Shown one piece after another: positions 1,666 through 39,284 of a DNA stretch of 64,000 nt. The stretch is from an uncultured Candidatus Saccharibacteria bacterium (GTDB lineage Bacteria > Patescibacteriota > Saccharimonadia > Saccharimonadales > Saccharimonadaceae), in contig CAUSOC010000003.1 of the NCBI GenBank assembly GCA_963533325.1, positions 2,305 to 66,304 of the forward strand, written 5' to 3'. Within the stretch, counting starts at the first letter, position 1; each line of letters starts with the position of its first letter. The notes beneath the pieces are model-generated. The model saw only the letters and a list, made by a program, of their open reading frames with translations, was not told the DNA's origin and did not search any database. The position numbers were made by a program, and so were the translations under genes.

Positions 1666-4482
1666 CTATTTCAATAGTGGCTTGAGGTACTTACCAGTAA
1701 ACGACTCTGTGTTCTTGGTAATCTCTTCTGGTGTTCCGCTAGCAACCACCGTACCACCGCCCATACCGCCTTCTGGGCCCATATCAATAATCCAATCTGC
1801 TGACTTGATGACGTCCAAATTGTGCTCAATCACGATCATACTGTTTCCACCTTCAACAAGCTTATGCAAAATCCCCAACAATCGCTTAACATCAGCCGAA
1901 TGCAACCCGGTGGTTGGCTCATCCAAAATATACATAGTTTTGCCCGTTGAGCGTTTTGATAACTCAGTCGCTAATTTGATGCGCTGCGCTTCCCCACCAG
2001 AGAAGGTGGTTGCCGGCTGGCCCAAACGAATATAGCCCAGACCAACCTCCACTAACGTCTCAAGCTTCCGGTGAATAGATGGGATACTGTCAAAGAATTC
2101 GGCAGCTTGTTCCACCGTCATTTCCAGCACATCAGAGATAGTGCGGTCTTTATAGGTAATTTCTAGCGCCTCACGGTTGTACCGCTTGCCTTTACACTCG
2201 TCACACATCACATACACGTCTGGCAAAAAGTGCATTTCAATTTTTATCACGCCATCACCCTGACAATTTTCACAGCGACCGCCCTTGACGTTAAAACTAA
2301 ACCGACCCGCCTTGTAGCCACGAACATTCGCTTCTGGCGTGGCGGCAAATAATTCGCGAATTGGCGTAAAAATACCCGTATAGGTGGCTGGGTTTGAGCG
2401 CGGCGTGCGACCAATCGGCGACTGGTCGATGACGATAGCTTTGTCTAGTAGCTTAATGCCGTCGATGCGGTCGTGTTTACCCGGCACAACCTGTGAACGG
2501 TTGAGACGAGCCGCTAGTTCTTTCGCTACAATGTCATTAACCAGCGTCGATTTACCACTACCAGACACACCAGACACCACCGTCATCAGTCCCAACGGAA
2601 ACGCCACGTCAATATTCTTCAAATTATTTTCCCGAGCACCACGTACAATCAGTTGCTGATCCTGGTTTGGCTTTCTGCGCTTTTTTGGTACTGCAATTTT
2701 TTCTACGCCGCTCAAATAGCGACCGGTGATACTGTCTGGATTTTTCGCTACTTCTTCAGGCGAACCCATGGCGACAATTTGCCCGCCTTTCGAGCCAGCA
2801 CCCGGCCCCATGTCGACCAAAAAGTCACTTTGGCGGATGGTATCTTCATCGTGCTCCACCACCAGCACTGTATTTCCAAGATCACGCAGACGCTTCAGGG
2901 TATCAATCAGCCTATCATTATCTCGCTGATGCAAGCCAATGGACGGCTCATCCAGAACATACAGCACACCCTGCAAACCCGAGCCGATTTGTGTCGCTAG
3001 CCGAATGCGCTGCGCCTCACCGCCGCTCAGTGTGTTAGCCGCCCGACCCAGTTCCAGATAATTCAAACCGACATTACTCATAAATCCAAGCCGTGCCTTG
3101 ATCTCCTTTAATATCAGCCGTGCAATCGTCGTTTCCTGTTCCGTCAATTTGAGCTTGTTAGTAAATAAGTCCAACGCATCATCAACGCCCAAGTCACAAA
3201 CATCAACAATATTGAGCCCGTGAACTGTCACTGCCAAGACTACTGGCTTGAGGCGAGCGCCCTTGCAGACATAGCATGCCCGCTCGCGCATAAATCGTTC
3301 AATATCTTTGCGCATAAATTCACTATCAGTCTCACGGTGCCGGCGCTCTAAGTTCGGGATCACCCCTTCATAGGTTGTGTCATAATGCCGACCACTGCCA
3401 AGCTCGATGCGATACTTTTGCGCCCCTGTTCCATACAAAATTGTCTGCTTAGCTTCATCAGACAGTTTCTTAACAGGCGTTCGCACACTAAAGCCATGCG
3501 CCTCGGCAACGGCCATGATTTTTTTCATATAGAAATTGTCGACATTGACGCGGTTGTACGGTCTGATGGCTCCTTCAGCGATAGTCAAATTGTCATTAAA
3601 CACCAGCTCCGGATCAATCTCCATGCGACTACCCAAACCAGTACAGCTTGGACAAGCTCCCTGGGGCGCGTTAAAACTAAACAGTCGTGGTTCCAGCTCA
3701 GGAATATCCTCTTCGGGATGATCAACACAAGCATACCGCTGCGAAAACGTTCGTACCTGATCGTCATCGGCGTCCAAAACCTCCACAATCCCCTGACCTA
3801 ATTCTAAGGCTTGCTCCACACTCTGAGACAACCGACCAGTCAATTCACTGTTCAATGCCAAGCGGTCAACCACCAGCTCAATCGAGTGCTTGTAGCTCTT
3901 TTGTAGCTCTGGAAATTCGTCTAGGGCATACACCACGCCATCAACCCTAACGCGAGCATAGCCCAGCCGACGGTATTGCTCAGGGATGTGCGCAAATTCA
4001 CCTTTTTTATTTTTGACGATTGGCGCCAACAGTAAAATCCGGTGTCCGTCATACTGCTTGATGATTTCTTGGATGATGGCTTCGGTGGTACGCCGCGACA
4101 CTGCTTTGCCGCAAATTGGACAGTGCGGCACGCCGATGCGCGCAAACAACAGTCGCAAATAGTCGTAAATCTCAGTCACTGTCGCTACCGTTGAGCGTGG
4201 GTTACGGCTGGTTGATTTTTGGTCAATCGAAATAGCTGGACTCAAGCCATCGATGCTATCGACATCGGGTTTATCCATCGTTCCCAAAAACTGCCGAGCA
4301 TACGAGTTCAAGCTCTCCATATAACGGCGCTGGCCCTCAGCATAAATCGTGTCAAACGCCAGACTTGATTTGCCTGAACCACTCAGGCCAGTAATGACCA
4401 CGAACTTATCGCGCGGCAATTCCACGCTAACATTTTTCAGATTGTGCTCGCGAGCACCTTTAACTCGAATAACCTCCGGCAT
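1666..4482 (-). CDS. uvrA: Excinuclease ABC subunit A
   Basis: GAREHNLKN, two Walker A motifs ([16 protein letters not shown]), LSGGEAQRI, Zn fingers; start moved to MPEVIRV. Confidence 0.98.
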
Positions 4483-4604: not shown

Positions 4605-4988
4605 ATGCAAAGGTTGAGTGTTTACTTACTACTACTTGTTGGCGTGGTTTTCATCACACCAGTGCTATTTGACCAGCTTTGCATGTTCGTGTTTCTTGGC
4701 AAGCTTCCGTTTTTGAACGTCAATTTGTCAGCTACCTCCATGATCGTTTTCTGGCTCGCCCTTGTACCAGTCTGCCGCATCTTGCGAGCAGCCATTCCGG
4801 TATCATTTGACGACATCAAAGAACTCATCCAATACATTTCCCGAAAACACATAAATAACAGCGTGTTGTACCAGAGCCATGATCTAACCTTGCTGTTTGT
4901 CTATCTGGCACATGAAACCAAGAAAGCAAAAACGAGCGAGCCAGACACCCCTATGGGCGCCCAAAAGCTTGCTCCATCTTTAACCTAA
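4605..4988 (+). CDS. Hypothetical membrane protein
   Basis: 127-aa ORF filling the uvrA-sbcB gap; two hydrophobic segments. Confidence 0.6.
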
Positions 4989-6397
4989 ACGATAGGCAGC
5001 ACCGCTTCTACCCACAACTGTAGTTCCTGTAAAATGAACTGCTGTTCGTCGGTCGCTGTCGGCGCCAAACGCTGCAAGGCTGCCATAAATTGCGGTAGTT
5101 GCGTCTGCAGGCGCTGAGCCCGCCACGTTTCCCACTGCGCCAGGTCATCTTCGCTGAGTGAGCGCGGAAAGTTGCGGGCTTTGTAGTGGAGTAATAATGG
5201 CGTCAACCGCTCGTCCTGAAATTCTGGATGAAAATCAGCTAGCTCGCGCTCATCGGCATTGCGCACCGCTTCTACCCGCAGGCGGTCACGGTCGTTCAAA
5301 AAGCCATCGTATAATTGTGCTTCTGGATCAGGTAGCTTCTTGAAGGCTGGCTTGTTTTCAAAAATAGTCCGTAATTTTTCAGCAAAGTCTGGGTTGTCTA
5401 GCAGTATATTTTGGTGCTTTTGGACAGTCGCTATGCCAAGCGAAATCTTCTGCCAGCCATCACCCTGTTCCAACACACCCAGTGGCGCCACCGCCGGACA
5501 GCGATTATACTGCAATTCTTTGACTGGTAGTTTAACGAAGTCCTCAGCTTGCCGCTCCTCCCACGATGCAAATATTTTCTTCGCCAATTCCTCCGCACTC
5601 AACCCGACAAACGGCGTTGGATCATAGCGCAGATCATAGACAACCACGCCGCCGTTTCGACTGGTCGTCAGCGGAAAGGCTACTGTGGTTTTGGCAAATT
5701 CTTTATCGTAACGCCCACTGGCGTAAACAAACGGTTTTTTGTCGTCGACATTGACCAGCTGTTGGACTACTTTTTTGTCGCGCATTTTTAGTAAATAATC
5801 ATACAACTGCGGCTGCTTTTGCTTAATCAATTTCGTCACGGCAATCAGCGCCGTTACGTCCGCCAAGGCGTCATGGGCATTTTCGTGCGCAATACCGTTG
5901 GCGCTGGTGATCAATTCCAAGCGGTTACTTGGCTCACCTTTAGCATCAAGTGGCCAATTGATTCCTTCCGGCCTAAGTGCTCTGGTTAACCGAACCACGT
6001 CCAGCAAATCCCAACGCGAGCGGCCATCCCTCCAGCTCCATTCATACGGGTCATGAAAATTACGCCACAACAAATGGCGAATGAACTCATCGTCAAACCG
6101 AATATTATTAAAGCCAACCGCAATAGTATCCGGCGTGAAAATCTCCTCGCTGAGCATCCGCGTAAACTGCGCCTCAGTGTAGCCTTCCTCGACCGTTTTT
6201 TGCGGCGTGATACCAGTCACCATCAGCGCGTCAGGGCTCGGCAAAGTATCATCGTTCAGCGCCACCAGCAGATTATACGGCTCGCCAATCGGTTCGAGAT
6301 TCATGTCTGTCCGCTGCCCCGCAAACTGCATGATGCGGTCTTGTCGCGAGTTTAGTCCGCTAGTTTCGAGGTCGTAGAAGAAGAATGTTTGCGCCAT
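4985..6397 (-). CDS. sbcB: Exodeoxyribonuclease I
   Basis: DEDDh motifs FYDLETSG, GFNNIRFDDEF and HENAHDALADV; EAQLYDGF. Confidence 0.95.
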   Translation of the reverse strand: MAQTFFFYDLETSGLNSRQDRIMQFAGQRTDMNLEPIGEPYNLLVALNDDTLPSPDALMVTGITPQKTVEEGYTEAQFTRMLSEEIFTPDTIAVGFNNIRFDDEFIRHLLWRNFHDPYEWSWRDGRSRWDLLDVVRLTRALRPEGINWPLDAKGEPSNRLELITSANGIAHENAHDALADVTALIAVTKLIKQKQPQLYDYLLKMRDKKVVQQLVNVDDKKPFVYASGRYDKEFAKTTVAFPLTTSRNGGVVVYDLRYDPTPFVGLSAEELAKKIFASWEERQAEDFVKLPVKELQYNRCPAVAPLGVLEQGDGWQKISLGIATVQKHQNILLDNPDFAEKLRTIFENKPAFKKLPDPEAQLYDGFLNDRDRLRVEAVRNADERELADFHPEFQDERLTPLLLHYKARNFPRSLSEDDLAQWETWRAQRLQTQLPQFMAALQRLAPTATDEQQFILQELQLWVEAVLPIV

Positions 6398-6402
6398 GAC
6401 TA

Positions 6403-7308
6403 CTAATCGTTGTTAATTGCCGCTATCGCTTCTCGAGCAAGAAGTCGTTTAGCATACTCAGGACCAGGCATGAGATTTTTTTCTCCGTGCAACAAATTGT
6501 ACACATCCAGCTTCAATGCCTTTGCAGCATCCGAGCGCGTATCATCTCTCCATTCCCTAATGATAGGTGAACGAAGAGCCTTGTCCACTGGCGCCTGAGG
6601 GTCAACCCACGCTTCTTTCAGTACCTCTTCTGGCACATGAATCCTACCGTCTTTCCAGCGCGATTCCAGATGGTTTAATGCAATCAACTGTTCAACTTTC
6701 TCCCCAAAATCATCAGATACATCAGGAGTGCGCAGCTCAGCACCCGCCAGGGCCAAATGCACATTGTACGCCCCGCCCAGCTTACGATAAATTTTCTTCA
6801 ATTCTTCCGCGCTCAACGCAGGTTGTTCCTCTGGCCTCACATAGTCGGCCTTCGTTGCGTCAAGCCAGTCAGCATAATATCCAGCCGCTTTTTCAGAACC
6901 AAACTGTTTCTTCTTCAGGCCAGCCAATACATACTGTGTCAATTTGCCAACTGGCCCATCGAGCAGCGACTCAACATTTCCCTTACGAACTTCTACCGCT
7001 AGGCGCCCGACGTATTCTTTAGGCTGATTTTTCAAATAATGATCACCGCTGAGCGGCTCCTCACCTCTCAACGCTCTGAGAACATCGTTCTGTGCGTCCT
7101 TAAAAGCCACATGCATCCGGACGTTGGGACCAAAATGATAACGACGTACCGCAGGAGCAAGCGCACGTTCCACTAAGGTCAACCCGACAGCCCCAACTGT
7201 CCCTACGGTATCCTCTCGATTTGATTTATATGCAATTTTGTTTTCCAGTCGCCCGATCTCCCAATAGCTCGGTACAGTCATCTGCCGCTCTGTGTTGCTA
7301 CTACCCAT
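6403..7308 (-). CDS. Hypothetical protein, possible degenerate squalene/phytoene synthase fold
   Basis: RBS GAGGAGG; spacing of DWLDATKAD..EELKKIY and GRIHVPEEVL recalls class I isoprenoid synthases, but there are no Asp-rich motifs. Confidence 0.45.
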   Translation of the reverse strand: MGSSNTERQMTVPSYWEIGRLENKIAYKSNREDTVGTVGAVGLTLVERALAPAVRRYHFGPNVRMHVAFKDAQNDVLRALRGEEPLSGDHYLKNQPKEYVGRLAVEVRKGNVESLLDGPVGKLTQYVLAGLKKKQFGSEKAAGYYADWLDATKADYVRPEEQPALSAEELKKIYRKLGGAYNVHLALAGAELRTPDVSDDFGEKVEQLIALNHLESRWKDGRIHVPEEVLKEAWVDPQAPVDKALRSPIIREWRDDTRSDAAKALKLDVYNLLHGEKNLMPGPEYAKRLLAREAIAAINND

Positions 7309-7368: not shown

Positions 7369-8751
<1,383 letters not shown>

Positions 8752-30917: not shown

Positions 30918-32159
30918 TTAGTGTACCACTCCAAGCCCATATGCGTCTAGTAAACTCTCGATTCCTGGCAGTTTTTTTCCAGCCATCAGCGCCAAACTAG
31001 CTCCACCACCTGTGGAAACATGGCTAAACGCTGCGCCGTCATGACCATCCCATTTCAATACAAAGTCAGCTGTATCACCGCCACCGACTACTGAAAGCGC
31101 CTGCTTGTTTTGGGCAATCGCTAAACTGAGACGAGCAGAACCAATGGCAAAGGTCGATTTCTCAGCAAAACCAACTGGACCATTCCAGATGATCGTTCCC
31201 GCGTGTGCTAGCACTGCAGTATAGCGTTCAATGGTTTGCATACCTATGTCGAGCGCCATGTCAGTGGCGCCAACATGCGTCACACTAACTTCACGCCGCT
31301 TTTGGCTATCAGGATGTTCAGCCACCGCAACATCGGTTGGCAGCAACAGAAATTCATCCACATGTTCACGGCCAACTTTTTGCTCCACCGCTTGATAAAT
31401 CTGATAGATGACATCGTGCTGACCTGGCTCAACGCGGCTCTTGCCCAGGCTCAATCCTTTATACTCCAAAAAGGTATTTGCCATAGCGCCGCCGATCAAG
31501 ATCTGATCAGCCTTGTCGATAAACTCATGAATCATGCCAATTTTGTCAGACACTTTGGCACCACCGACGATGGCAACTAGTGGTCGTTTAGGCTTAAGCA
31601 TAGCGTGAGTGATGGCGTTATATTCAGCACAAACTAAATCACCCGCTAGCCCAGGCATATACATGGTAATTTCATGCGTACTGGCGTGTTTTCGGTGAAC
31701 CACTGCAAAGCCGTCTTGCACAAAATAATCAGCTTGACTGGCCCGAGCAATTGAGCGCGCAAACTGCGTGTCGTCGGCTTCTTCTTCAGGATAAAACCGC
31801 AAATTTTCTAACAAAATGATTGCGCCAGAAGATCGCCGCACTGTTTGACGAACTTTATCGCCGACACAATCATCAACAAATTTCACTGGATACTGCAACA
31901 GTTCTGACAAGCGCACCGCAACTGGCGCTAGACTGTATTTTTCGTCTCGGCCTTGCGGACGGCCCAAGTGACTGATCAGCACAATCTTACAATGCTGCGA
32001 CAACAGATATCTTAACGTGGGCAAACTGGCACGAATTCGTAGATCATCAGAAATCTCACCATTTTCGAGCAACGGCACATTATAGTCAACCCGCACCAAC
32101 ACTGTTTTATGGCGCAAGTCGACGTCATGAATTGTCTGTTTGAAAAATCGTTTGCCCAC
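30918..32159 (-). CDS. pgk: Phosphoglycerate kinase
   Basis: RVDYNVP, SHLGRP, LENLRF, GGAKVSDK, STGGGASL. Confidence 0.98.
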   Translation of the reverse strand: MGKRFFKQTIHDVDLRHKTVLVRVDYNVPLLENGEISDDLRIRASLPTLRYLLSQHCKIVLISHLGRPQGRDEKYSLAPVAVRLSELLQYPVKFVDDCVGDKVRQTVRRSSGAIILLENLRFYPEEEADDTQFARSIARASQADYFVQDGFAVVHRKHASTHEITMYMPGLAGDLVCAEYNAITHAMLKPKRPLVAIVGGAKVSDKIGMIHEFIDKADQILIGGAMANTFLEYKGLSLGKSRVEPGQHDVIYQIYQAVEQKVGREHVDEFLLLPTDVAVAEHPDSQKRREVSVTHVGATDMALDIGMQTIERYTAVLAHAGTIIWNGPVGFAEKSTFAIGSARLSLAIAQNKQALSVVGGGDTADFVLKWDGHDGAAFSHVSTGGGASLALMAGKKLPGIESLLDAYGLGVVH

Positions 32160-32185
32160 CCTTTGATATCCTATATACTAATCAT

Positions 32186-33607
32186 TTACTCCAGTGTCAA
32201 AACGCGTATCGTATCAGTTTTGCCGGCGCCTGGGCGGTGGCCATTAACCAACACCAACGTTGCCACACCATCACCAAAGTAGCCTTCATTTTTCAGATCA
32301 CGTGCTAGGTCAAGACCATGACAGTTCTCTGGTGGGCGCATGTACACACGAGTTGCGTAATTCAGCGCCAACTTCTGAGCTGTTTTGCGGTTGTCTGTCA
32401 GGCTGATGATCGGCATGTTTGGACGGAAAGCACCAATGTTGACGGCCGTAGCACCCGTGTCCGTCTCTGCCACGATAGCATCTGCGTTGAGGTCACGCGC
32501 CAAACGAGCAGCTGTGTAGCTGATGACAGCGTCATTTTTCTGGCGAGATTCACTCTTTGTCACCGACATGACATCACTGTGTTCCTGGGTGTAGAGAATG
32601 GTTTTTCGCATGGAATCAACCGCTTCAATTGGGTATTTACCATTGGCAGTCTCATCAGACAACATCACCACGTCAGCACCCTGGATGACCGCGTTTGCCA
32701 CATCGCTCACTTCAGCGCGGCTCGGCTCAGGATTGTCAACCATACTACCCATCATCTGAGTTGCTACGATCACCATCTTGCCGTGCTTGCGACACAATGT
32801 GATAATCCGTCGCTGCACGACCGGCACAATCTCGGCGCCAGCTTCCACCGCCAAGTCTCCTCGCGCCACCATGACACCATCGCTCAACTGCACGATCTTT
32901 TCCAGGTTTTCTGGAGAGATGGCAGATTTTGTCTCAATCTTGGCGATGATCTGCGCTTCAGAACCAAACGTCAACAAACGCTGCCGCAAGTCAACGATAT
33001 CAGATGCCGACTGCACGAAGCTCAAAGAAACATAATCAAAGTCGCGGCTAGCCCCCCACTCAATGTCTTCTAGGTCTTTCTGGGTCAAAATATCACCGCC
33101 AAAATCAGTGTCAGGCAAATTCAAACCTTTTCGGCTCATCAAAAAGCCGTCATTTTGAATCTCAACCTTGATGGCAGTTTCACTGACGATTTCACGAACA
33201 ATTGAACGAATTTTACCGTCAAACATGTACAACGGTTCGCCAACTTTCATCTTGCTGGCCAAGTTGTACTGCACTGGAAGATTGAAGCTTCCGTCATGTT
33301 CAGCAATTTCCGAGTCCAGCACCAACATATCGCCAGTTTTCACTTCCAACATGTTGTCTTTCAAAATACCCAGACGAATTTTTGGACCTTGCAAGTCTTG
33401 CAAGATCGCAACTGGCTTGTCTTGCTCACGGCTAGCGGTACGAATCCACTCAATCTGCTGCGTGCGCTCTTCGTAGCTACCGTGGCTAAAATTAAGACGG
33501 AAACCGTTGGCGCCAGCGGCCATCAGCTCCGATACTTTTTCCTGGCTCATGGTTGCAGGACCAATTGTTGCCAAAATTTTGGTACGTTTAAAAATAGGTT
33601 TACTCAT
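32186..33607 (-). CDS. pyk: Pyruvate kinase
   Basis: TKILATIGP, RLNFSHG, DLQGPKIR, IAKIE, MVARGDL, MLSDETA. Confidence 0.98.
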   Translation of the reverse strand: MSKPIFKRTKILATIGPATMSQEKVSELMAAGANGFRLNFSHGSYEERTQQIEWIRTASREQDKPVAILQDLQGPKIRLGILKDNMLEVKTGDMLVLDSEIAEHDGSFNLPVQYNLASKMKVGEPLYMFDGKIRSIVREIVSETAIKVEIQNDGFLMSRKGLNLPDTDFGGDILTQKDLEDIEWGASRDFDYVSLSFVQSASDIVDLRQRLLTFGSEAQIIAKIETKSAISPENLEKIVQLSDGVMVARGDLAVEAGAEIVPVVQRRIITLCRKHGKMVIVATQMMGSMVDNPEPSRAEVSDVANAVIQGADVVMLSDETANGKYPIEAVDSMRKTILYTQEHSDVMSVTKSESRQKNDAVISYTAARLARDLNADAIVAETDTGATAVNIGAFRPNMPIISLTDNRKTAQKLALNYATRVYMRPPENCHGLDLARDLKNEGYFGDGVATLVLVNGHRPGAGKTDTIRVLTLE

Positions 33608-33677
33608 TTTTAAAATTATATCACGAAATAACAGTGATGGAAAATGGTTGTGTTATCTGGGGTCTAATATCATCTAG

Positions 33678-33779
33678 TCAAGCTTTTATGTTGTCGTCTA
33701 GAGTTAATCCAGCATCAGATTTTTTAAAATCAGCATAAGCTAATGCCGACAAACTTAAGTACTCAATGGTTTTTACCAT
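33678..33779 (-). pseudogene. Truncated 5' stub C of a putative effector gene
   Basis: RBS GAGGAGG, then MVKTIEYLSLSALAYADFKKSDAGLTLDDNIKA*; overlaps the stop of 33773..34597. Confidence 0.7.
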
Positions 33780-34597
33780 CTATCGCCCTCCTCTACTGGC
33801 ATATTTTTTGACGTATCAATACAACCTTTTATCTCATTAATTGATGACAACTTATCTCTATTACAATATTCTCTTGAAATAAGCTTGCCATTCTTCGATA
33901 AGTATATATTTACAGATATATCTTTAGGGCTCACTCCCACGTTTTTCGCATACTCCATCATCTCGTGTATGCCACTAGCAAAACGACTCTCGTCTTTAAT
34001 GTCACCATCATACTTAAAATTTAATCCATAAGCTAAATTGCCACGCTGCCCGACTTTATTTTCAGCCAAAAACACCTCCTCAAAAGTTGGCTTTTTCAGA
34101 GTGAAGGTACGCTCTACGTCCGGATCTATTACGCCTAGTCTAACTTTGACATCAACGGGCATGTCTTTAAATATTTCTCTGACTTTGGGCTGAATTTTGG
34201 CAGTTTGTTCTTTTTGCCAAGTCCTTACTACATAGTCGTCGCTATATTTTGTCTGGTTGTCTACCCGAGAAATATGTATCTTTATACTTTTATCTGATTT
34301 AGGGTAGGCGTTAGTAGACCATACGCAAGAGATACCAAAAGCACCGCCATCGCAACTAGGCTTTTCTACATCAAAATCTTGATTGTATTTATTTTTTAGA
34401 TAGCTAGTTATATTAGCCTGCTCGATCGTATCACTAACCGAACGTTTATTAATTTCTCTATCTACTATAATTCCACCTACGATATACACTACCGTCATTA
34501 TCACAACTATCGACGACAGAATAATTAAAATAACTCGCCGGGCTTTTTTATTATTTATGCGTGACTTGTTAGTCCTTTTACTTTTACTCTTCGCCAT
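33773..34597 (-). CDS. Membrane-anchored YLxNKY-family protein, paralog C (immunity-like)
   Basis: Basic N-terminus, one TM, YLKNKYNQDFDVE..GAFGI..AY..SDDY..W. Confidence 0.8.
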   Translation of the reverse strand: MAKSKSKRTNKSRINNKKARRVILIILSSIVVIMTVVYIVGGIIVDREINKRSVSDTIEQANITSYLKNKYNQDFDVEKPSCDGGAFGISCVWSTNAYPKSDKSIKIHISRVDNQTKYSDDYVVRTWQKEQTAKIQPKVREIFKDMPVDVKVRLGVIDPDVERTFTLKKPTFEEVFLAENKVGQRGNLAYGLNFKYDGDIKDESRFASGIHEMMEYAKNVGVSPKDISVNIYLSKNGKLISREYCNRDKLSSINEIKGCIDTSKNMPVEEGDRW

Positions 34598-34633
34598 ACA
34601 ACACAGCCTCTTATTGCTTAGTTATTTATGATT

Positions 34634-34747
34634 TTATTTAAACATAGGCATGATACAACATGCTAGTGGTCTTATCTGTAAAAGCAACTCTGAGGTTGGT
34701 AATTGCTTTGAGATTAGTATCAGATATTCTAGAGTTTTTAATGCCAT
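34634..34747 (-). pseudogene. Truncated 5' stub B of a putative effector gene
   Basis: RBS AGGGG, then MALKTLEYLIL... (37 codons; similarity to stubs A and C only over about 11 residues), starting right after the stop of 34749..35477. Confidence 0.5.
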
Positions 34748-34748
34748 A

Positions 34749-35477
34749 TTATTCCCCTATCTTATTAATACAATCATCCAAGTCTTTTTCGGACCCCAAA
34801 TCTTTTTTATCTAGAAAAATTGTACATCTGCCAGTTGAACGATTTTTACTATTGGTATCTATTTTTATGCTGTAAATACTCTCTTCTCTCAATTTCTCTA
34901 CAATTTTGAATATATAAGAAGCCTTCTGTTTGTCATTCGGAGCGTCTATTATTAGCCTGTACAAGAAGCCTTCGTCTTTTGTTTTATTATCTTCATATTT
35001 AGATTGTTTATTTACAGAGTCTACCAAATCTTCAGATAAGACAATTTCTGCCCGTGCACTATCTGCTTTATAGCCATTGCTATTAGCGTTAACTTCTTTG
35101 ATGGTAGATTCTAACTCCCTGCTGGCTTGGACTGACCAGATGGCGGCGATGTATTGGTCGCTACAGTCAGAGGGGTTCAAATAGCTGCAATCGATGTCGA
35201 ATTTTAGTTTTGGGTTTGACACTAGGTATGCTTGCGACATCCATATACCGTTGACCCCAAAACCTCCGTGTTTATACTCAGGTCTCTCTACCTTAAAATC
35301 TTCGTTATATTTATTTTTTAGATACTCTGACATCCCATTCTGGGCATTGGATATTTTATTTTCATTTTTGATATGTAAGACAATCGCTATGGCAACAATC
35401 AATATAACCAGGCTACAGAGGGCTATCAATAATTTGTATACTTTATGCTTCTTTGTCTTACTAACTTTTTTTACCAT
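34749..35477 (-). CDS. Membrane-anchored YLxNKY-family protein, paralog B (immunity-like)
   Basis: Basic N-terminus, one TM, YLKNKYNEDFKVE..GGFGV..AY..SDQY..W; GGAGG RBS; TTGCAT-17-TAAAAT promoter. Confidence 0.8.
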   Translation of the reverse strand: MVKKVSKTKKHKVYKLLIALCSLVILIVAIAIVLHIKNENKISNAQNGMSEYLKNKYNEDFKVERPEYKHGGFGVNGIWMSQAYLVSNPKLKFDIDCSYLNPSDCSDQYIAAIWSVQASRELESTIKEVNANSNGYKADSARAEIVLSEDLVDSVNKQSKYEDNKTKDEGFLYRLIIDAPNDKQKASYIFKIVEKLREESIYSIKIDTNSKNRSTGRCTIFLDKKDLGSEKDLDDCINKIGE

Positions 35478-35654
35478 GACCCCTCCGGTCATTTGCTAGA
35501 TGATACTATTTTAGCTTAAGCATAACTTATATGCAAAGAAATTGATGCTATACACAATCCTAGGTTATAGGTTGTGAAGTTTCACATCCCAGGAGCAGAT
35601 AGGGTTAGCCCCTTTCTTAAAGGCAGAGAGCTAAATATCTGATGAATCAAAACC

Positions 35655-36089
35655 TCAGAGGCTATTCAGCTGATTAATAGATCCGACTACTGAGGCAATA
35701 CCCCATACTGTCCCATTCATATAAATTATTTCTTGATACTCCTTAGGATCTCCTAAGTCGTAGCCACAATGCTGTAGTTCATATTTACCGTCGTATATCT
35801 TTCTGCCACATAAGTCTGGTTTGCCGATAAGCTCCTCGACCGTATCCCTATCCATGCCGATCTGGACGTCGCTCATCTTCTCATAGAACTCGTCCTTAGT
35901 TGACCAAGGCCTACTGTTAGTATTGGAGCTAGCATTAGTATCAGAGACAGTATTAGGGCGAGGAGTGTGCTGCTGTAGATATAGGATTGTTACGACTCCA
36001 GCGGTAAAACATATAGCTACGTAAACTAGCACAATAGCCACAAGTTTAATTAACTTTTTACCTTTATAAGGATGACCGTTGTTTACCAT
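35655..36089 (-). CDS. Membrane-anchored SmpA/BamE/BLIP-like domain protein
   Basis: One TM, S/T/N linker, VQIGMDRDTVEELIGKP (IxxGMxxxxVxxxxGxP motif). Confidence 0.65.
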   Translation of the reverse strand: MVNNGHPYKGKKLIKLVAIVLVYVAICFTAGVVTILYLQQHTPRPNTVSDTNASSNTNSRPWSTKDEFYEKMSDVQIGMDRDTVEELIGKPDLCGRKIYDGKYELQHCGYDLGDPKEYQEIIYMNGTVWGIASVVGSINQLNSL

Positions 36090-36106
36090 AAGCTTATTCT
36101 ATTACG

Positions 36107-36238
36107 TTATACTGGACAGTTCAATCTACTTGGATATCTAGAAATAGTTGGAAGTTCGCCTAAAGATGAGCCTTCAAATTTTGTCAAGTCCGAGTAAGCT
36201 AAAGCACTCAGCGCTAAATATTGCTCAGTAGTTACCAT
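36107..36238 (-). pseudogene. Truncated 5' stub A of a putative effector gene
   Basis: RBS AAGGGG, then MVTTEQYLALSALAYSDLTKFEGSSLGELPTISRYPSRLNCPV*; overlaps the end of 36225..37052. Confidence 0.7.
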
Positions 36239-37052
36239 TATTTGTCCCCTTCATATTGCCATCTAGATACTTTTTTATATCCACCTCGCTATGAATCTTA
36301 TTAACAGAACCTTCGCTAAACCTTCGACAGTTTCTGTAACTAGTGTCACATGTGCGTAAATATAGACTATCTAATGATGTTTTCTGCAGGAGGGATACAA
36401 GTTTCCATAGTCTATTACTGTCGCGTATACTCATATCAAACACGATGAGCTCTATAGATATATGCTCCTTGTTACCAGTAGCTCTATATTCTTTGAAGCT
36501 TGGTATATACTTCTTATAATCCATTTTTCCAGCCTTGCTGCTATTAAAATAAACAGCCACCTCATATGCCACGTCATCATACAATATAGCCTTTATCTCA
36601 GGTTTTATTTCATCAAGATATTCCCTACTCCAAAGCTGATTAATGTAATTATCCCGATACTGATGAGAGCTTCCGTTAGGATCACCATAATCCCATACTT
36701 TGAATCTTAGATTATCTTTGTCAGATTTAAGATATGCGTCAGCCGTTGGATCACCCTCAACACCAATACCGCGTCCCTCAATTCTATAATTCTCTACTAC
36801 AAATTCTTTGCCATATTTATTCCTTAGATACCGAGCCATGTCATTTTGTCGTGCTAGATTATTGCTAGTACTGACAATAAACTGCACGACAACAGCAAGC
36901 AAGATGATAATAACAATAGCAATCCAAGGTCTTACATTTATGCTTTGCTTGGACTTAGGCTTTTTCAGTGTGGTTTTCTTGGGCAGTTTTTTGCTGACGC
37001 GAGTATTCTTATTGTTTGTCTGTCTTGTCTTTGTTATACCGTTTTTTGCCAT
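36225..37052 (-). CDS. Membrane-anchored YLxNKY-family protein, paralog A (immunity-like)
   Basis: Basic N-terminus, one TM, YLRNKYGKEFVVE..GIGV..AY..RDNY..W; TTGCAA-17-TAAAAT promoter. Confidence 0.8.
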   Translation of the reverse strand: MAKNGITKTRQTNNKNTRVSKKLPKKTTLKKPKSKQSINVRPWIAIVIIILLAVVVQFIVSTSNNLARQNDMARYLRNKYGKEFVVENYRIEGRGIGVEGDPTADAYLKSDKDNLRFKVWDYGDPNGSSHQYRDNYINQLWSREYLDEIKPEIKAILYDDVAYEVAVYFNSSKAGKMDYKKYIPSFKEYRATGNKEHISIELIVFDMSIRDSNRLWKLVSLLQKTSLDSLYLRTCDTSYRNCRRFSEGSVNKIHSEVDIKKYLDGNMKGTNNGNY

Positions 37053-37134
37053 TGAAGACCCACATTACTATTAGTTACTAATTACTTTTGATTTTATAGT
37101 AAGCATAAGCTTATTGCAAAACTAGAAATAAAAC

Positions 37135-37156
37135 AAAAAAGGCTCCAAATAGCCTC
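37135..37156 (-). terminator. Terminator after tRNA-Glu
   Basis: aggct-atttgg-agcct followed by a T-run on the minus strand. Confidence 0.55.
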
Positions 37157-37168
37157 TTGATTCCATAG

Positions 37169-37243
37169 TGGTGACCTTACCGGGAATCGAACCCGGATTG
37201 CCAGGATGAAAACCTGGTGTCCTAACCGTTAGACGATAAGGCC
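37169..37243 (-). tRNA. tRNA-Glu(TTC)
   Basis: GGCCTTATCG..CCAGG-TTTTCAT-CCTGG..GGTTCGATTCC..GGTCACCA. Confidence 0.96.
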
Positions 37244-37347
37244 AACGTCACGAATTATAGCAAATTATCAGTCAGTTGTCTACAAGTGGACAAAGCAATT
37301 TTCCGCTTCATTTCTCATTTGGCGTCGTTTCTTATATAATAATAGTC

Positions 37348-37560
37348 ATGGCAAAGCAAAAGAAGAAACGCAACAAAAAGTACACTGGTGTGGACGCTGC
37401 CACCAAGCGACCATCAATCACTCGCGTTAGTGCAGTCAACCGCTCACGGTTTGGGCAGTGGCGTCATGATCACCAACGACAACTCAGCATTGCGCGTACT
37501 GTCGCCATCATCATCGTTGCGCTCATCATCATTGTTTCGGGCGTCATGAGCTTATTCTAA
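37348..37560 (+). CDS. Small basic protein with a C-terminal TM
   Basis: MAKQKKKRNKKY.. directly after TATAAT; hydrophobic C-terminus. Confidence 0.7.
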   Translation: MAKQKKKRNKKYTGVDAATKRPSITRVSAVNRSRFGQWRHDHQRQLSIARTVAIIIVALIIIVSGVMSLF

Positions 37561-37566
37561 CGCCAT

Positions 37567-38859
37567 CTACTTCACCGGCAGACGAAACCCAAAGGTACTG
37601 CCTTTACTCTCTTTTGATTCAAATACCATCTGACCGCCGTGTGCCAGGACAACCTTGCGCGCCAAAAACAGCCCGATCCCCGTACCGTCTGGGCGTTTTT
37701 TGCGAGCGTTTGAGCCACGGAAAAACTTGCTGAACAAATTTGCTTTCTCCGCGTCAGGAACGCCGATACCAGTGTCTTTGACGGTAAACACCACATCGTC
37801 ATCATCTCTGGTCAGTTTTACTTTGATGGTCGTGTCGGGTTTTGAGTAGTACAGTGCATTTTCAATCATATTCATCATCACCTGTCGCAATTTTTCACCA
37901 TCCACCATGGGCTGTGGGATGTCTTTGTCGATGTCCACTGCTATTTTGACATGTCGCTGTTTGGACATGGTTTTTAGGAATGCAACCTCGTCTTTGACCA
38001 GTTGTACCAAGTCAGTCGCTTGACGGTTGATGACGAATTTGCCCGTTTGCAGCCTGGATACACTCAAAAAGTCACCAATGAGCTGCACCATTCTCTCGCT
38101 TGAGCCAAAGGCTTCGGTCAATACGGTGCGTTGCGTCGCGTTGATCGGCCCCAGGTCGCCCTCCAGCATCATGTCCAAATAGCCCTTGATGCTGGTCAGC
38201 GGGGTTCGCAACTGGTGTGATGCCATGGAGATGAATTCGTCTTTGGCAGCATCCAGTCGCTGTAGTTGGCGGTTGCTAATCCTGAGTTCCCTCGTTGCAT
38301 CGATGATTTTCTGTTGCAACGTTTCGTTAAGCTGCCGTACTTCAGCCATAGCGAGTGAGTTTTTGACTGCCACCACCAATTCACCGCTCATGGTTTCCAG
38401 GAGGGAAATATCTCGCCGCGTGTAGCGCTTGGCTCGTCTGCCAAACAACACACAACCAACGCATTCGTGGTCCATGGCTAACGGCAGGATGACTTCAATG
38501 TGATACATCGCCAAACTTTGCTGCAATGATTCATCCGCCAAATCTTTGACGAGCACCACTTCGTTGTAGCGATAATGCCGATGAATATGCTTTGTCAATC
38601 GTGCCACGTCAATCGCCGGAAGAACTCGTTTGCTGGTACTTTCTAGTCTAAAATTGTCACCAATCTTCACCGCTAGCGTCACGGACTCCGCCTGAAATGA
38701 CCGCCGCAAAAAACATTTCATGCGCTTTAAAAATACGTCCAAATCAGTGCTGCGCAGTAACAACATGCCCATCTCAGCAAAAAATTCTTGCTTGCGCATG
38801 CGACTGGTTTTCAAAACATGAGTCGCTTTTTTCAGAGATTGCCCATAGTCCCTATCCAT
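37567..38859 (-). CDS. Soluble sensor histidine kinase (GAF-like + HisKA + HATPase)
   Basis: ASHQLRTPL, NMIENALYY, DTGIG, GTGIGL; no TM segments. Confidence 0.93.
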   Translation of the reverse strand: MDRDYGQSLKKATHVLKTSRMRKQEFFAEMGMLLLRSTDLDVFLKRMKCFLRRSFQAESVTLAVKIGDNFRLESTSKRVLPAIDVARLTKHIHRHYRYNEVVLVKDLADESLQQSLAMYHIEVILPLAMDHECVGCVLFGRRAKRYTRRDISLLETMSGELVVAVKNSLAMAEVRQLNETLQQKIIDATRELRISNRQLQRLDAAKDEFISMASHQLRTPLTSIKGYLDMMLEGDLGPINATQRTVLTEAFGSSERMVQLIGDFLSVSRLQTGKFVINRQATDLVQLVKDEVAFLKTMSKQRHVKIAVDIDKDIPQPMVDGEKLRQVMMNMIENALYYSKPDTTIKVKLTRDDDDVVFTVKDTGIGVPDAEKANLFSKFFRGSNARKKRPDGTGIGLFLARKVVLAHGGQMVFESKESKGSTFGFRLPVK

Positions 38860-38918
38860 GTATATAAATATAAGCGATTTAGGCCTTCTCGTCCAGATAT
38901 CTGTGCTATAATGAGCCT

Positions 38919-39284
38919 ATGAAGAAGATTGCCATTATCGAAGACGATCCAGCTATTAGCCAGATGTACCGCATGAAATTTGAGGCTGATGATTTTGACG
39001 TACGACTCGCAGCCGATGGCAAAGTGGGCGTCGAATTAGTTGAGAAATTTACCCCAGATATCATTTTGCTTGATTTACAAATGCCAGAAATGGACGGATT
39101 GACTGCCTTGAAAAAAATTCGTTCGCACACGTGGGGTGAAACTGTGCCAGTCATCGTCCTAACTAACCTGAGCGAAGAAGAAGCGCCCGATGAACTGCGA
39201 GATCTCAACATTCACAGCTACATCGTCAAAGCGAACTTGACACCACGCCAAGTAGTCAGCAAAGTCAAAGACGTCATCGGCTAA
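38919..39284 (+). CDS. Single-domain response regulator
   Basis: IIEDD, LLDLQMPEMDG, VLTN, YIVK; no output domain. Confidence 0.93.
   Translation: MKKIAIIEDDPAISQMYRMKFEADDFDVRLAADGKVGVELVEKFTPDIILLDLQMPEMDGLTALKKIRSHTWGETVPVIVLTNLSEEEAPDELRDLNIHSYIVKANLTPRQVVSKVKDVIG

Follow-up and report, generated by a model that had tools for sequence, protein, structure and literature searches.

An array of candidate orphan immunity genes, each followed by the 5' scar of a giant RTX lipase gene, in a Saccharibacterium

Three paralogous genes stand between the pyruvate kinase gene pyk and a tRNA-Glu gene in the window analysed here, a 64,000-nucleotide stretch of contig CAUSOC010000003.1 from an uncultured Candidatus Saccharibacteria bacterium, and each is followed by a short open reading frame (ORF). 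We regard it as probable (roughly 0.6) that the paralogs encode orphan immunity proteins and that the short ORFs are the 5' scars of deleted genes for giant, type I-secreted repeats-in-toxin (RTX) lipases. The structural and evolutionary statements made below are close to certain. A toxin-immunity system in which immunity has outlived the toxin would fit six lines of evidence: the coupling of a paralog upstream of each lipase gene, the asymmetry between lipase and paralog, the conservation of the orphans, their topology, their diversity and their location in a hotspot of conflict genes. The paralogs, the short ORFs (stubs) and the boundaries of the locus are as follows, in window positions.

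P1, 36225-37052, minus strand: ORF of 275 aa, predicted single-pass N-in/C-out membrane protein, immunity-like
P2, 34749-35492, minus strand: ORF of 247 aa, immunity-like
P3, 33773-34597, minus strand: ORF of 274 aa, immunity-like, the copy chosen for modelling
Stub1, 36107-36238, minus strand: ORF of 43 aa, 5' scar of a lipase gene, with 36152-36238 only (29 codons) derived from the lipase
Stub2, 34634-34747, minus strand: ORF of 37 aa, doubly deleted lipase 5' scar consisting of about 9 lipase codons and an old junction tail
Stub3, 33678-33779, minus strand: ORF of 33 aa, lipase 5' scar, with 33694-33779 (about 29 codons) derived from the lipase
tRNA-Glu(TTC), 37169-37243, minus strand: found by ARAGORN, upstream boundary of the variable locus, at the same position in all syntenic loci
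pyk (pyruvate kinase), 32186-33607, minus strand: identified by ORF and synteny, downstream boundary of the variable locus

P1, P2 and P3 are 22-24% identical to one another with 21 invariant columns in their alignment, and their mutual similarity is far above chance (E 5e-15 to 1e-8, tblastn within the genome); no further copies were found by tblastn elsewhere in the window's genome. All three have a K/R-rich N-terminal tail, one hydrophobic helix and the motif YL.NKY...F.VE..G..AY..D.Y..W. The stub ORFs open with M..T.EYL.L and begin either 2 nt after the 3' end of the paralog or with an overlap of 7 or 14 nt, each behind a purine-rich run resembling a ribosome-binding site. Stub1 shares 65% identity with stub3 across 20 residues (E 0.001), and the homology of stub2 to the other stubs is limited to its first ~9 codons. 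A first-pass annotation of this DNA had described most of these features. Its three paralogs all stand, with the start of P2 moved from 35477, an internal ATG, to 35492; the alignment confirmed the shared basic tail, membrane helix and YLxNKY motif, and the ORF listing and sequence bore out a ribosome-binding site and an overlapping or abutting short ORF at each paralog 3' end. The stubs had also been called mutually homologous and 33-43 codons long, which holds for the lengths and for stub1 and stub3 but for stub2 only over the codons just mentioned.

The nature of the stubs becomes apparent in congeners, where a paralog is followed by a long ORF that opens with the stub sequence (2063 aa in genome G027, 2056 aa in G009, and at least 1157 aa in G018 and at least 911 aa in G022, where the ORFs run off the contig). 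The paralog is translationally coupled to this lipase gene. Since hlyB and hlyD lie directly 3' of the G027 lipase gene and pyk comes after them, the intact gene order is tRNA-Glu, paralog, RTX lipase, hlyB, hlyD, pyk, with flanks as in the window; lipase, hlyB and hlyD are in the same order in G018. The two G027 transport genes exceed the NCBIfam cut-offs for an HlyB-type ABC exporter directly downstream of the lipase (TIGR01846, 931.6 bits against 725.55) and for an HlyD adaptor, likewise downstream (TIGR01843, 325 bits against 208.65). A type I secretion pair of HlyB and HlyD, familiar mainly from Gram-negative bacteria, is here present in a Saccharibacterium. The association between paralog and lipase is strict when viewed from the lipase: 23 of 23 intact lipase genes in the examined loci have a same-strand paralog ending -19 to +19 nt from the lipase start. 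Viewed from the paralog, 51 ORFs identified by the family hidden Markov model in 30 loci comprise 23 that precede an intact or contig-ended lipase gene, 23 that precede stubs of 28-95 codons, 4 directly before the next paralog and 1 fragment. G094, G096, G132 and G142 have two distinct lipase loci each, located on different contigs or at distant points of a single contig.

Both states of the locus occur in named strains of Candidatus Nanosynbacter. TM7-087 has three paralogs, the last of them followed by an ORF of at least 637 aa with GHSLGG, and in TM7-075 an ORF of at least 1157 aa with the same motif comes after a paralog. TM7-008 (two paralogs, their stubs 43 and 58 codons long) and TM7-076 (one paralog with an 88-codon stub) are orphan-only. 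The first-pass annotation had proposed a two-gene unit present three times with gene 1 whole and only the start of gene 2 kept. The intact gene 2 is what is seen in congeners, with the window stubs as its 5' scars, and the pair that had been suggested as a check, a YLxNKY gene before a long gene starting ..YL.LSALAY.D and carrying GHSLGG, was found there. An invariant locus would have spoken against that proposal; the content between pyk and tRNA-Glu differs between genomes.

According to its models, the partner gene encodes a secreted-type RTX protein with an N-terminal class-3 lipase domain of alpha/beta-hydrolase fold, and enzymatic activity and export are predicted. Its relatives are about 1150-2832 aa long and have up to seven RTX+HCBP modules each. 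In the G027 lipase, TGHSLGGG is found ~170 residues in, and the repeats match the Pfam families HCBP_related (247.9 bits over 7 stretches) and HemolysinCabind (178 bits over 11 stretches); in tblastn, the lipases show five to six RTX/HCBP modules that align with one another. Across 43 aligned N-domains G179, S181, L182, G183, G184, D240 and H332 are invariant, which includes the Ser and Asp of a candidate triad (S181, D240) whose His could be either the invariant H332 or H255 (at least 90% conserved). An AF2 model of residues 1-527 of the G074 lipase (mean predicted local distance difference test score (pLDDT) 68.5, core 85-93) gave 2ory, 1usw, 3o0d, 9cys_A, 3ngm and the R. miehei lipase as best Foldseek matches (probability 1.0, E 1e-4 to 1e-3), a set that spans class-3 lipases, phospholipase A1 and a type VI secretion system (T6SS) lipase effector. 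The N-domain sequence retrieved nothing from the PDB at E<=1, and the G027 N-domain scored below the cut-off of 21.1 bits for Mbeg1-like/DUF2974 (PF11187; 11.9 bits, E 0.15). Among 64 lipase relatives, two of which carry the source names 'TM7 phylum sp. oral taxon 353' and 'Candidatus Nanosynbacter sp.', precomputed matches exist to PF01764 (Lipase_3) in 28 and to PF11187 in 2; together with the class-3 lipase fold, these make the earlier guess of a Lipase_3/DUF2974 partner right in kind. The sole NCBIfam match of the G027 N-domain (L015, 5038-6357) is 'SA1320 family protein' (E 5e-6, 25 bits against a 230-bit cut-off), which hints at a distant tie to a staphylococcal protein family.

Comparison with these intact loci allowed the origin of each window cassette to be traced. 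The window from 36152 to 39000 aligns to the G113 locus at 95% DNA identity, taking in P1 and exactly 29 lipase codons. P1 is 97% identical to the paralog directly before the G113 lipase (open frame 2063 aa), and stub1 is identical to the N-terminus of that lipase over 29 residues; the stub1 junction falls on a GGCGARCTT microhomology with the sequence that precedes a 144-aa ORF (ORF144, described below) in G015 and G107. P2 is 84-86% identical to paralogs directly before the intact lipases of G022, G095 and G115. The DNA homology of stub2 to the G022 lipase gene stops 28 nt into the ORF, and its tail, ~93% identical to the tail of an 88-aa stub in G094 and to an orphan stub in G107, is by sequence comparison an older deletion junction common to those orphan stubs. 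Finally, the window from 33694 to 34659, containing P3 and ~29 lipase codons, is 92% identical to G074. P3 itself shares 93% identity with the paralog of G074 and 87% with that of G079, both of which precede intact lipases, and stub3 matches the lipase start of these two genomes through ..DAGLTL. On the other side, the window from 32000 to 33659 is 97% identical to G027 sequence beginning at the hlyD stop codon. As the P3 side matches G074 to ~29 codons and the pyk side matches G027 from the hlyD stop, the terminal deletion removed everything from lipase codon ~29 through the end of hlyD. No source was found in the downstream regions of G018 and G027 for the 34 nt at 33660-33693 between the two. 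The stub3 junction is common to G000, G015 and G019, which are different species representatives, and the deletion is therefore old.

Only 9-29 lipase codons were kept in the window and the stubs stop before GHSLGG, so that the toxin domain is missing from them. Searches of the window's assembly, which is 86% complete, found neither a lipase N-domain nor a giant RTX protein nor HlyB/HlyD. The further suggestion of the first-pass annotation, that the array consists of silent cassettes serving a complete locus at another place in the genome, found no support in that assembly, which yielded no lipase, RTX protein or HlyD. A candidate partner on contig C26 was rejected, as the stub3 match (E 0.031) lies inside an unrelated 441-aa ORF and is due to chance.

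The paralogs are more widespread than the lipase. Of the 131 genomes of the genus, 50 carry them (33 of the 79 of high quality), compared with 22 that have a lipase N-domain match, all of them among the 50; the 22 include G089, a short fragment with an internal stop, and G093, with a longest open frame of 333 aa. The other 28 paralog genomes have no lipase match, and several of these are one- to five-contig assemblies that are 98-99% complete. A single-protein query detected the paralog family in 10 of 61 related genomes, all of the same genus, and the paralog profile found it in 3 of 12 other genomes of the Saccharibacteria family and in none of 288 genomes from the order's remaining families. 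A scan of 185,579 species, which depends on a YL[KQ][NE]KY pattern taken from an 18-row alignment, returned 39 loci, all under the titles Saccharibacteria, Nanosynbacter or Saccharimonas; the lack of Bacillota homologues among these 39 is weak evidence given that dependence.

Orphan copies are under purifying selection, as judged from codon comparisons. The ratio of nonsynonymous to synonymous substitution rates (dN/dS) of P3 among three lipase-less species representatives is 0.09-0.15 (dS 0.14-0.20); that of P2 is 0.06 between G015 and G019 and 0.20-0.21 between the window and these two orthologues. All but 3 of the paralog matches listed are without an internal stop. On values of 0.06-0.15 and intact frames, pseudogene debris was rejected as a reading of the paralogs. 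In paralog-free congeners the tRNA-Glu/pyk site is either empty (about 120 bp in G063, L095) or occupied by an N6/N4 methylase and a ThsB-TIR-like protein (G003, L094 80-4628) or a HaeII-type restriction enzyme and a C5 methylase (G012, L093 4681-7906). Because restriction-modification and ThsB-TIR genes fill it in these genomes, the site is a hotspot or island for conflict genes. At the same site in G013 (L018 7339-10070), a Dcm-like methylase is found with a 559-aa protein behind a 66-codon lipase stub.

The topology of the paralogs (a basic N-terminal tail, one transmembrane helix and a confidently folded ectodomain with a Cys pair) is in keeping with an immunity role. In the AF2 model of P3 (pLDDT 89.5), the membrane span is part of a long helix, after which come two alpha/beta subdomains. 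The ectodomain of P3 most resembles the DUF5037 structure 4gl6 (Ruminococcus gnavus RUMGNA_01148), with a VIA Z of 12.1 at a root-mean-square deviation of 4.5 A over 204 of 241 residues, the next match having a Z of 7.5; Foldseek gave E 8e-5 and TM 0.43-0.49 for the same structure. The likeness is one of fold only, as no DUF5037 Pfam match was seen in the window paralogs or in 106 scanned members. Individually, subdomain 1 resembles cystatin/PepSY folds and subdomain 2 prodomain or ring-building folds (Z 5-7.5), likenesses that may reflect just a common arrangement in the model. All conserved residues are in the first subdomain apart from a conserved Cys pair in the second, and the family is highly diverse, with 694 clusters at 50% identity (E<=1e-3).

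Named families do not capture the paralogs. No Pfam or NCBIfam family matches them, or ORF144, above cut-off, and looking up the clusters of ten distant representatives produced no informative protein names. YfjL_N (PF25425) scored 14.9 bits with P2 and 13.3 bits with P3, below its 27.8-bit cut-off; it was found at E<=0.01 in 3 of 106 relatives (best 6.7e-6), with no match at that threshold in the window's genome. A comparison of structural features, to be taken as a lead only, likewise returned YfjL-like proteins of similar size (score 0.90-0.92). The paralogs are like DUF5037 4gl6 in ectodomain fold and, as a weak lead, like the Bacillota YfjL-like proteins in structural features and size, but differ in failing the cut-offs of the sequence families.

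Deletions have removed the window's lipase genes from codon ~9-29 onward, with hlyB and hlyD also lost from the last cassette; the paralogs stayed whole. Under the proposed immunity role, the paralog ectodomain would be exposed on the outer face of the epibiont membrane, where it could bind and neutralise lipase domains released by competing Nanosynbacter strains, and a lipase-less strain would keep a bank of three specificities. How specificity might be encoded is suggested by the 23 intact pairs, in which ectodomain identity follows that of lipase residues 1-~45 (Mantel r 0.86; the permutation p-values overstate the case since related genomes are not independent). In each of the 6 pairs compared by DNA identity profile, the switch falls between +110 and +190 nt of the lipase gene (codons 37-63), and the sole difference between G027 and G095 is a patch from -210 to +88, i.e., from the paralog C-terminus to the lipase start. 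On these sequence profiles, the inherited module is the paralog plus the N-terminal segment of the lipase (~45-60 residues).

Several results weigh against the immunity reading, in which binding and neutralisation of the lipase by the paralogs are inferred from genetics. Ectodomain identity correlates with that of the catalytic body at an r of just 0.42 in the same 23 pairs, with many discordant cases: bodies at least 91% identical accompany ectodomains 23-33% identical (G018/G022, G027/G009, G079/G096a and G132/G096), and paralogs 92-98% identical accompany bodies 41% identical (G079/G074 and G022/G095). Such a pattern is not what strict cognate immunity to the catalytic domain would predict, and the co-variation of the module may come from plain linkage and a recombination hotspot at the conserved PELSAL..NPLRS motif. 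The G027 N-domain is below the 22-bit cut-off of Lipase_3 (PF01764; 17.3 bits, E 0.0046). On the paralog side, the DUF5037-like fold (cystatin/PepSY-like plus prodomain-like) is no known lipase-immunity fold, and DUF576 and DUF1433, the immunity families of S. aureus (see below), are absent from the 11 Pfam families listed for 106 members at E<=0.01. Lastly, as the window's assembly is only 86% complete, a lipase may lie elsewhere in the strain.

Specificity may not reside in the catalytic domain. Since the paralog and the lipase start (~45-60 residues) are passed on together as a single module, the N-terminal segment may take part in recognition. In its full form this idea holds that the ectodomain and these residues constitute the unit of specificity, shuffled independently of at least five body classes, and that incoming RTX lipases would be disarmed via an N-terminal 'address'. 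We put this forward as a tentative extension of the immunity reading, well short of even odds.

The same module could serve the producer instead. As substrates of type I secretion systems (T1SS) emerge C-terminus first, the N-terminal ~45-60 residues of the lipase are the last to leave, and a paralog that binds them could be a docking, retention or chaperone partner of its own lipase with no role in protection from foreign ones. Such a partner accounts for co-variation that is far stronger with the lipase start than with the catalytic body, for the position of the breakpoints in all six pairs and for the confinement of the G027/G095 difference to the paralog C-terminus and lipase start. One T6SS lipase is also reported to require its immunity protein in order to be activated (bioRxiv 10.1101/2023.03.28.534661). 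Nevertheless, the partner of an absent protein should decay as the stubs did, yet in the 28 paralog genomes without a lipase match the paralogs are intact and their dN/dS is low; adjacent DNA, moreover, co-varies by linkage alone. We therefore consider a docking partner unlikely.

Extensive mosaicism of the locus raises another alternative, namely that the array supplies donor cassettes for recombinational switching of the module before the lipase body, either at the strain's own locus or at one gained by natural transformation. P3 and P2 exchange their C-terminal halves from genome to genome, and orphan units lie upstream of an intact pair in G079, G074, G094, G096, G107, G116 and G143. The first paralog of G024 (L020 6715-7488) is chimeric, with the join at the YLxNKY region: the G015/G019 slot-1 type accounts for the N-terminus and YLQNKYRQEFVVE motif and the P2 type for the rest, which indicates recombination between two paralogs at the conserved motif with deletion of everything between. 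However, no intact lipase that could be switched was found in the window's genome, and the 9-29 lipase codons of its stubs, like the unequal stub lengths across genomes (22-95 codons), resemble decay rather than a handle for recombination. As the principal function of the array this is improbable, although it is compatible with an immunity role.

Least probable of all, and in our view a long shot, is that the paralogs are variable surface proteins diversifying under phage, host-bacterium or human immune pressure and adjoin the lipase by locus history alone: their many clusters, predicted surface exposure, a C-terminal subdomain conserved in nothing but its Cys pair and the general hotspot character of the locus would fit, but every intact lipase gene (23 of 23) has a paralog at most 19 nt upstream, all 22 lipase genomes carry paralogs, and the paralogs are found only in the Saccharibacteria family in which the lipase occurs.

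The closest analogue of an orphan immunity array is found in S. aureus. According to two reports (PMC10730906, PMC13560087), TslA and TslM combine an N-terminal phospholipase/lipase (GxSxG) with a C-terminal targeting part and are delivered through type VII secretion (T7SS). Their immunity proteins TilA (Til1, DUF576 lipoproteins) and TilM (Til2, DUF1433, transmembrane-anchored) are described there as membrane-bound and extracytoplasmic and as occurring in rafts of non-identical paralogs, which vary in number by strain and are kept when the toxin gene is absent or frameshifted; the TslA immunity paralogs lie upstream, and the toxin closes the cluster at its 3' end (PMC10730906, PMC13560087). 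TslA/TilA and TslM/TilM have in common with the present locus an N-terminal lipase toxin, a raft of membrane-bound immunity proteins and loss of the toxin with retention of immunity. They differ in using an LXG-like helical domain and Lap partners where HlyB/HlyD type I secretion and a giant RTX/HCBP carrier are found here. The paralogs here have no match to DUF576 or DUF1433, are two-domain proteins with a DUF5037-like fold and belong to a Saccharibacterial host; the orphans keep 5' toxin scars and co-vary with the first ~45-60 residues of the toxin, not with its catalytic body.

The Tle/Tli pairs of the T6SS are comparable in their alpha/beta-hydrolase lipase effector, extracytoplasmic attack and immunity protein in the same compartment, and the lipase model matches chain 9cys_A, an E. 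cloacae T6SS lipase effector, at E 9e-4 in Foldseek. In contrast to these, there is no T6SS here, the lipase is fused to an RTX carrier and the immunity candidate is of another family and fold. Contact-dependent inhibition (CDI; cdiA-CT/cdiI), Rhs and other polymorphic toxin systems similarly have displaced modules of a toxin fragment with a whole immunity gene, recombination at junctions and toxins that are polymorphic within a genus, but the layout here is their mirror image, with the immunity gene upstream and a kept fragment that is the 5' end and lacks the toxin domain. This follows from the T1SS signal being C-terminal: the toxin domain is N-terminal, and hence the immunity gene is upstream and the 5' fragment is what is kept. 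Family I.3 RTX lipases are about 50-65 kDa and are not known to have an immunity partner or arrays. Those of Pseudomonas and Serratia (TliA, LipA) are reported to consist of an N-terminal lipase and C-terminal RTX repeats and to use an ABC transporter with an HlyD-type adaptor (PMC3430570). The proteins described here differ from them in length (about 1150-2832 aa), in their up to seven RTX+HCBP modules, in their Saccharibacterial origin and in the paralog that is always upstream.

The remaining features of the locus and of related loci are listed below.

ORF144, 35655-36089, minus strand: gene for a 144-aa membrane-anchored protein between stub1 and P2, accompanying some cassettes
Junction sequence of 34 nt, 33660-33693, minus strand: between lipase codon ~29 and the hlyD end
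Candidate promoter-like site TTTGCA..TAAAAT, 37091-37120, minus strand: upstream of P1, from a consensus scan only
Candidate promoter-like site, similar, 35508-35537, minus strand: upstream of P2, from a consensus scan only
HlyB/HlyD pair, L022 (G027) 4987-7119, minus strand: identified by NCBIfam
ORF144 copies: L021 7892-8326, L014 5954-6391, L043 3128-3562, L044 2263-2694, L041 3016-3429, L033 3174-3587
Double lipase loci: L033/L034, L035/L036, L041/L042 and L030/L031, for genomes G094, G096, G132 and G142

Intact copies of ORF144 lie just upstream of a paralog in G015, G019, G124, G107, G116, G094 and G096, in the last case directly before an intact paralog-lipase pair, and ORF144 may be a further component of some cassettes. 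It has weak BamE/DUF3192-like matches only, and its dN/dS of 0.66-1.0 comes from very few changes. Upstream of ORF144 in G015 (L021 ~8397-8470) and G107 (L043 ~2972-3057) is a 13-codon remnant (MAKSKSKRTKKRA-stop) that looks, by its sequence, like the start of a P3-type paralog; paralog genes, then, are sometimes truncated too.

In the literature searched, from which subscription-only papers and supplements fell outside, no account was found of Saccharibacteria having partner arrays together with a lipase, an RTX protein or type I secretion, which agrees with the first-pass annotation having known of none. Saccharibacteria are unable to make their own lipids. A 2024 perspective states that mechanisms of lipid uptake and breakdown in Patescibacteria are unidentified, and phospholipases are merely proposed in it to damage host envelopes. 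Polymorphic toxins are mentioned in PMC13622651 in another context only, and PMC9040727 has none of the six terms looked for in it. By analogy with S. aureus, from which the raft logic is known, what is new here is the T1SS RTX carrier, the unrelated immunity-like family and the Saccharibacterial host.

Roughly every sixth Nanosynbacter species representative encodes such a giant lipase together with a type I secretion system of its own, amounting to ~1% of a 0.7-0.9 Mb genome, and over a third have the membrane-anchored partner family, in many cases as arrays of orphans. This distribution points to lipase-based warfare between epibiont strains that compete for the same oral hosts, and also to an immunity-like family, not named before, with a predicted DUF5037-like fold. 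The mirror-image architecture of the orphans extends the 'reverse' logic of lipase toxins from T7SS to T1SS, and as both locus states are present in Candidatus Nanosynbacter strains the idea is directly testable. A patescibacterium is reported to undergo natural transformation (PMC11665869). If the reading of an N-terminal address were true, no earlier interbacterial weapon of the toxin-immunity type would be on record from Patescibacteria, and this one would be delivered through a T1SS in an ultrasmall epibiont; the lipase may also let carrier strains breach or harvest membranes.

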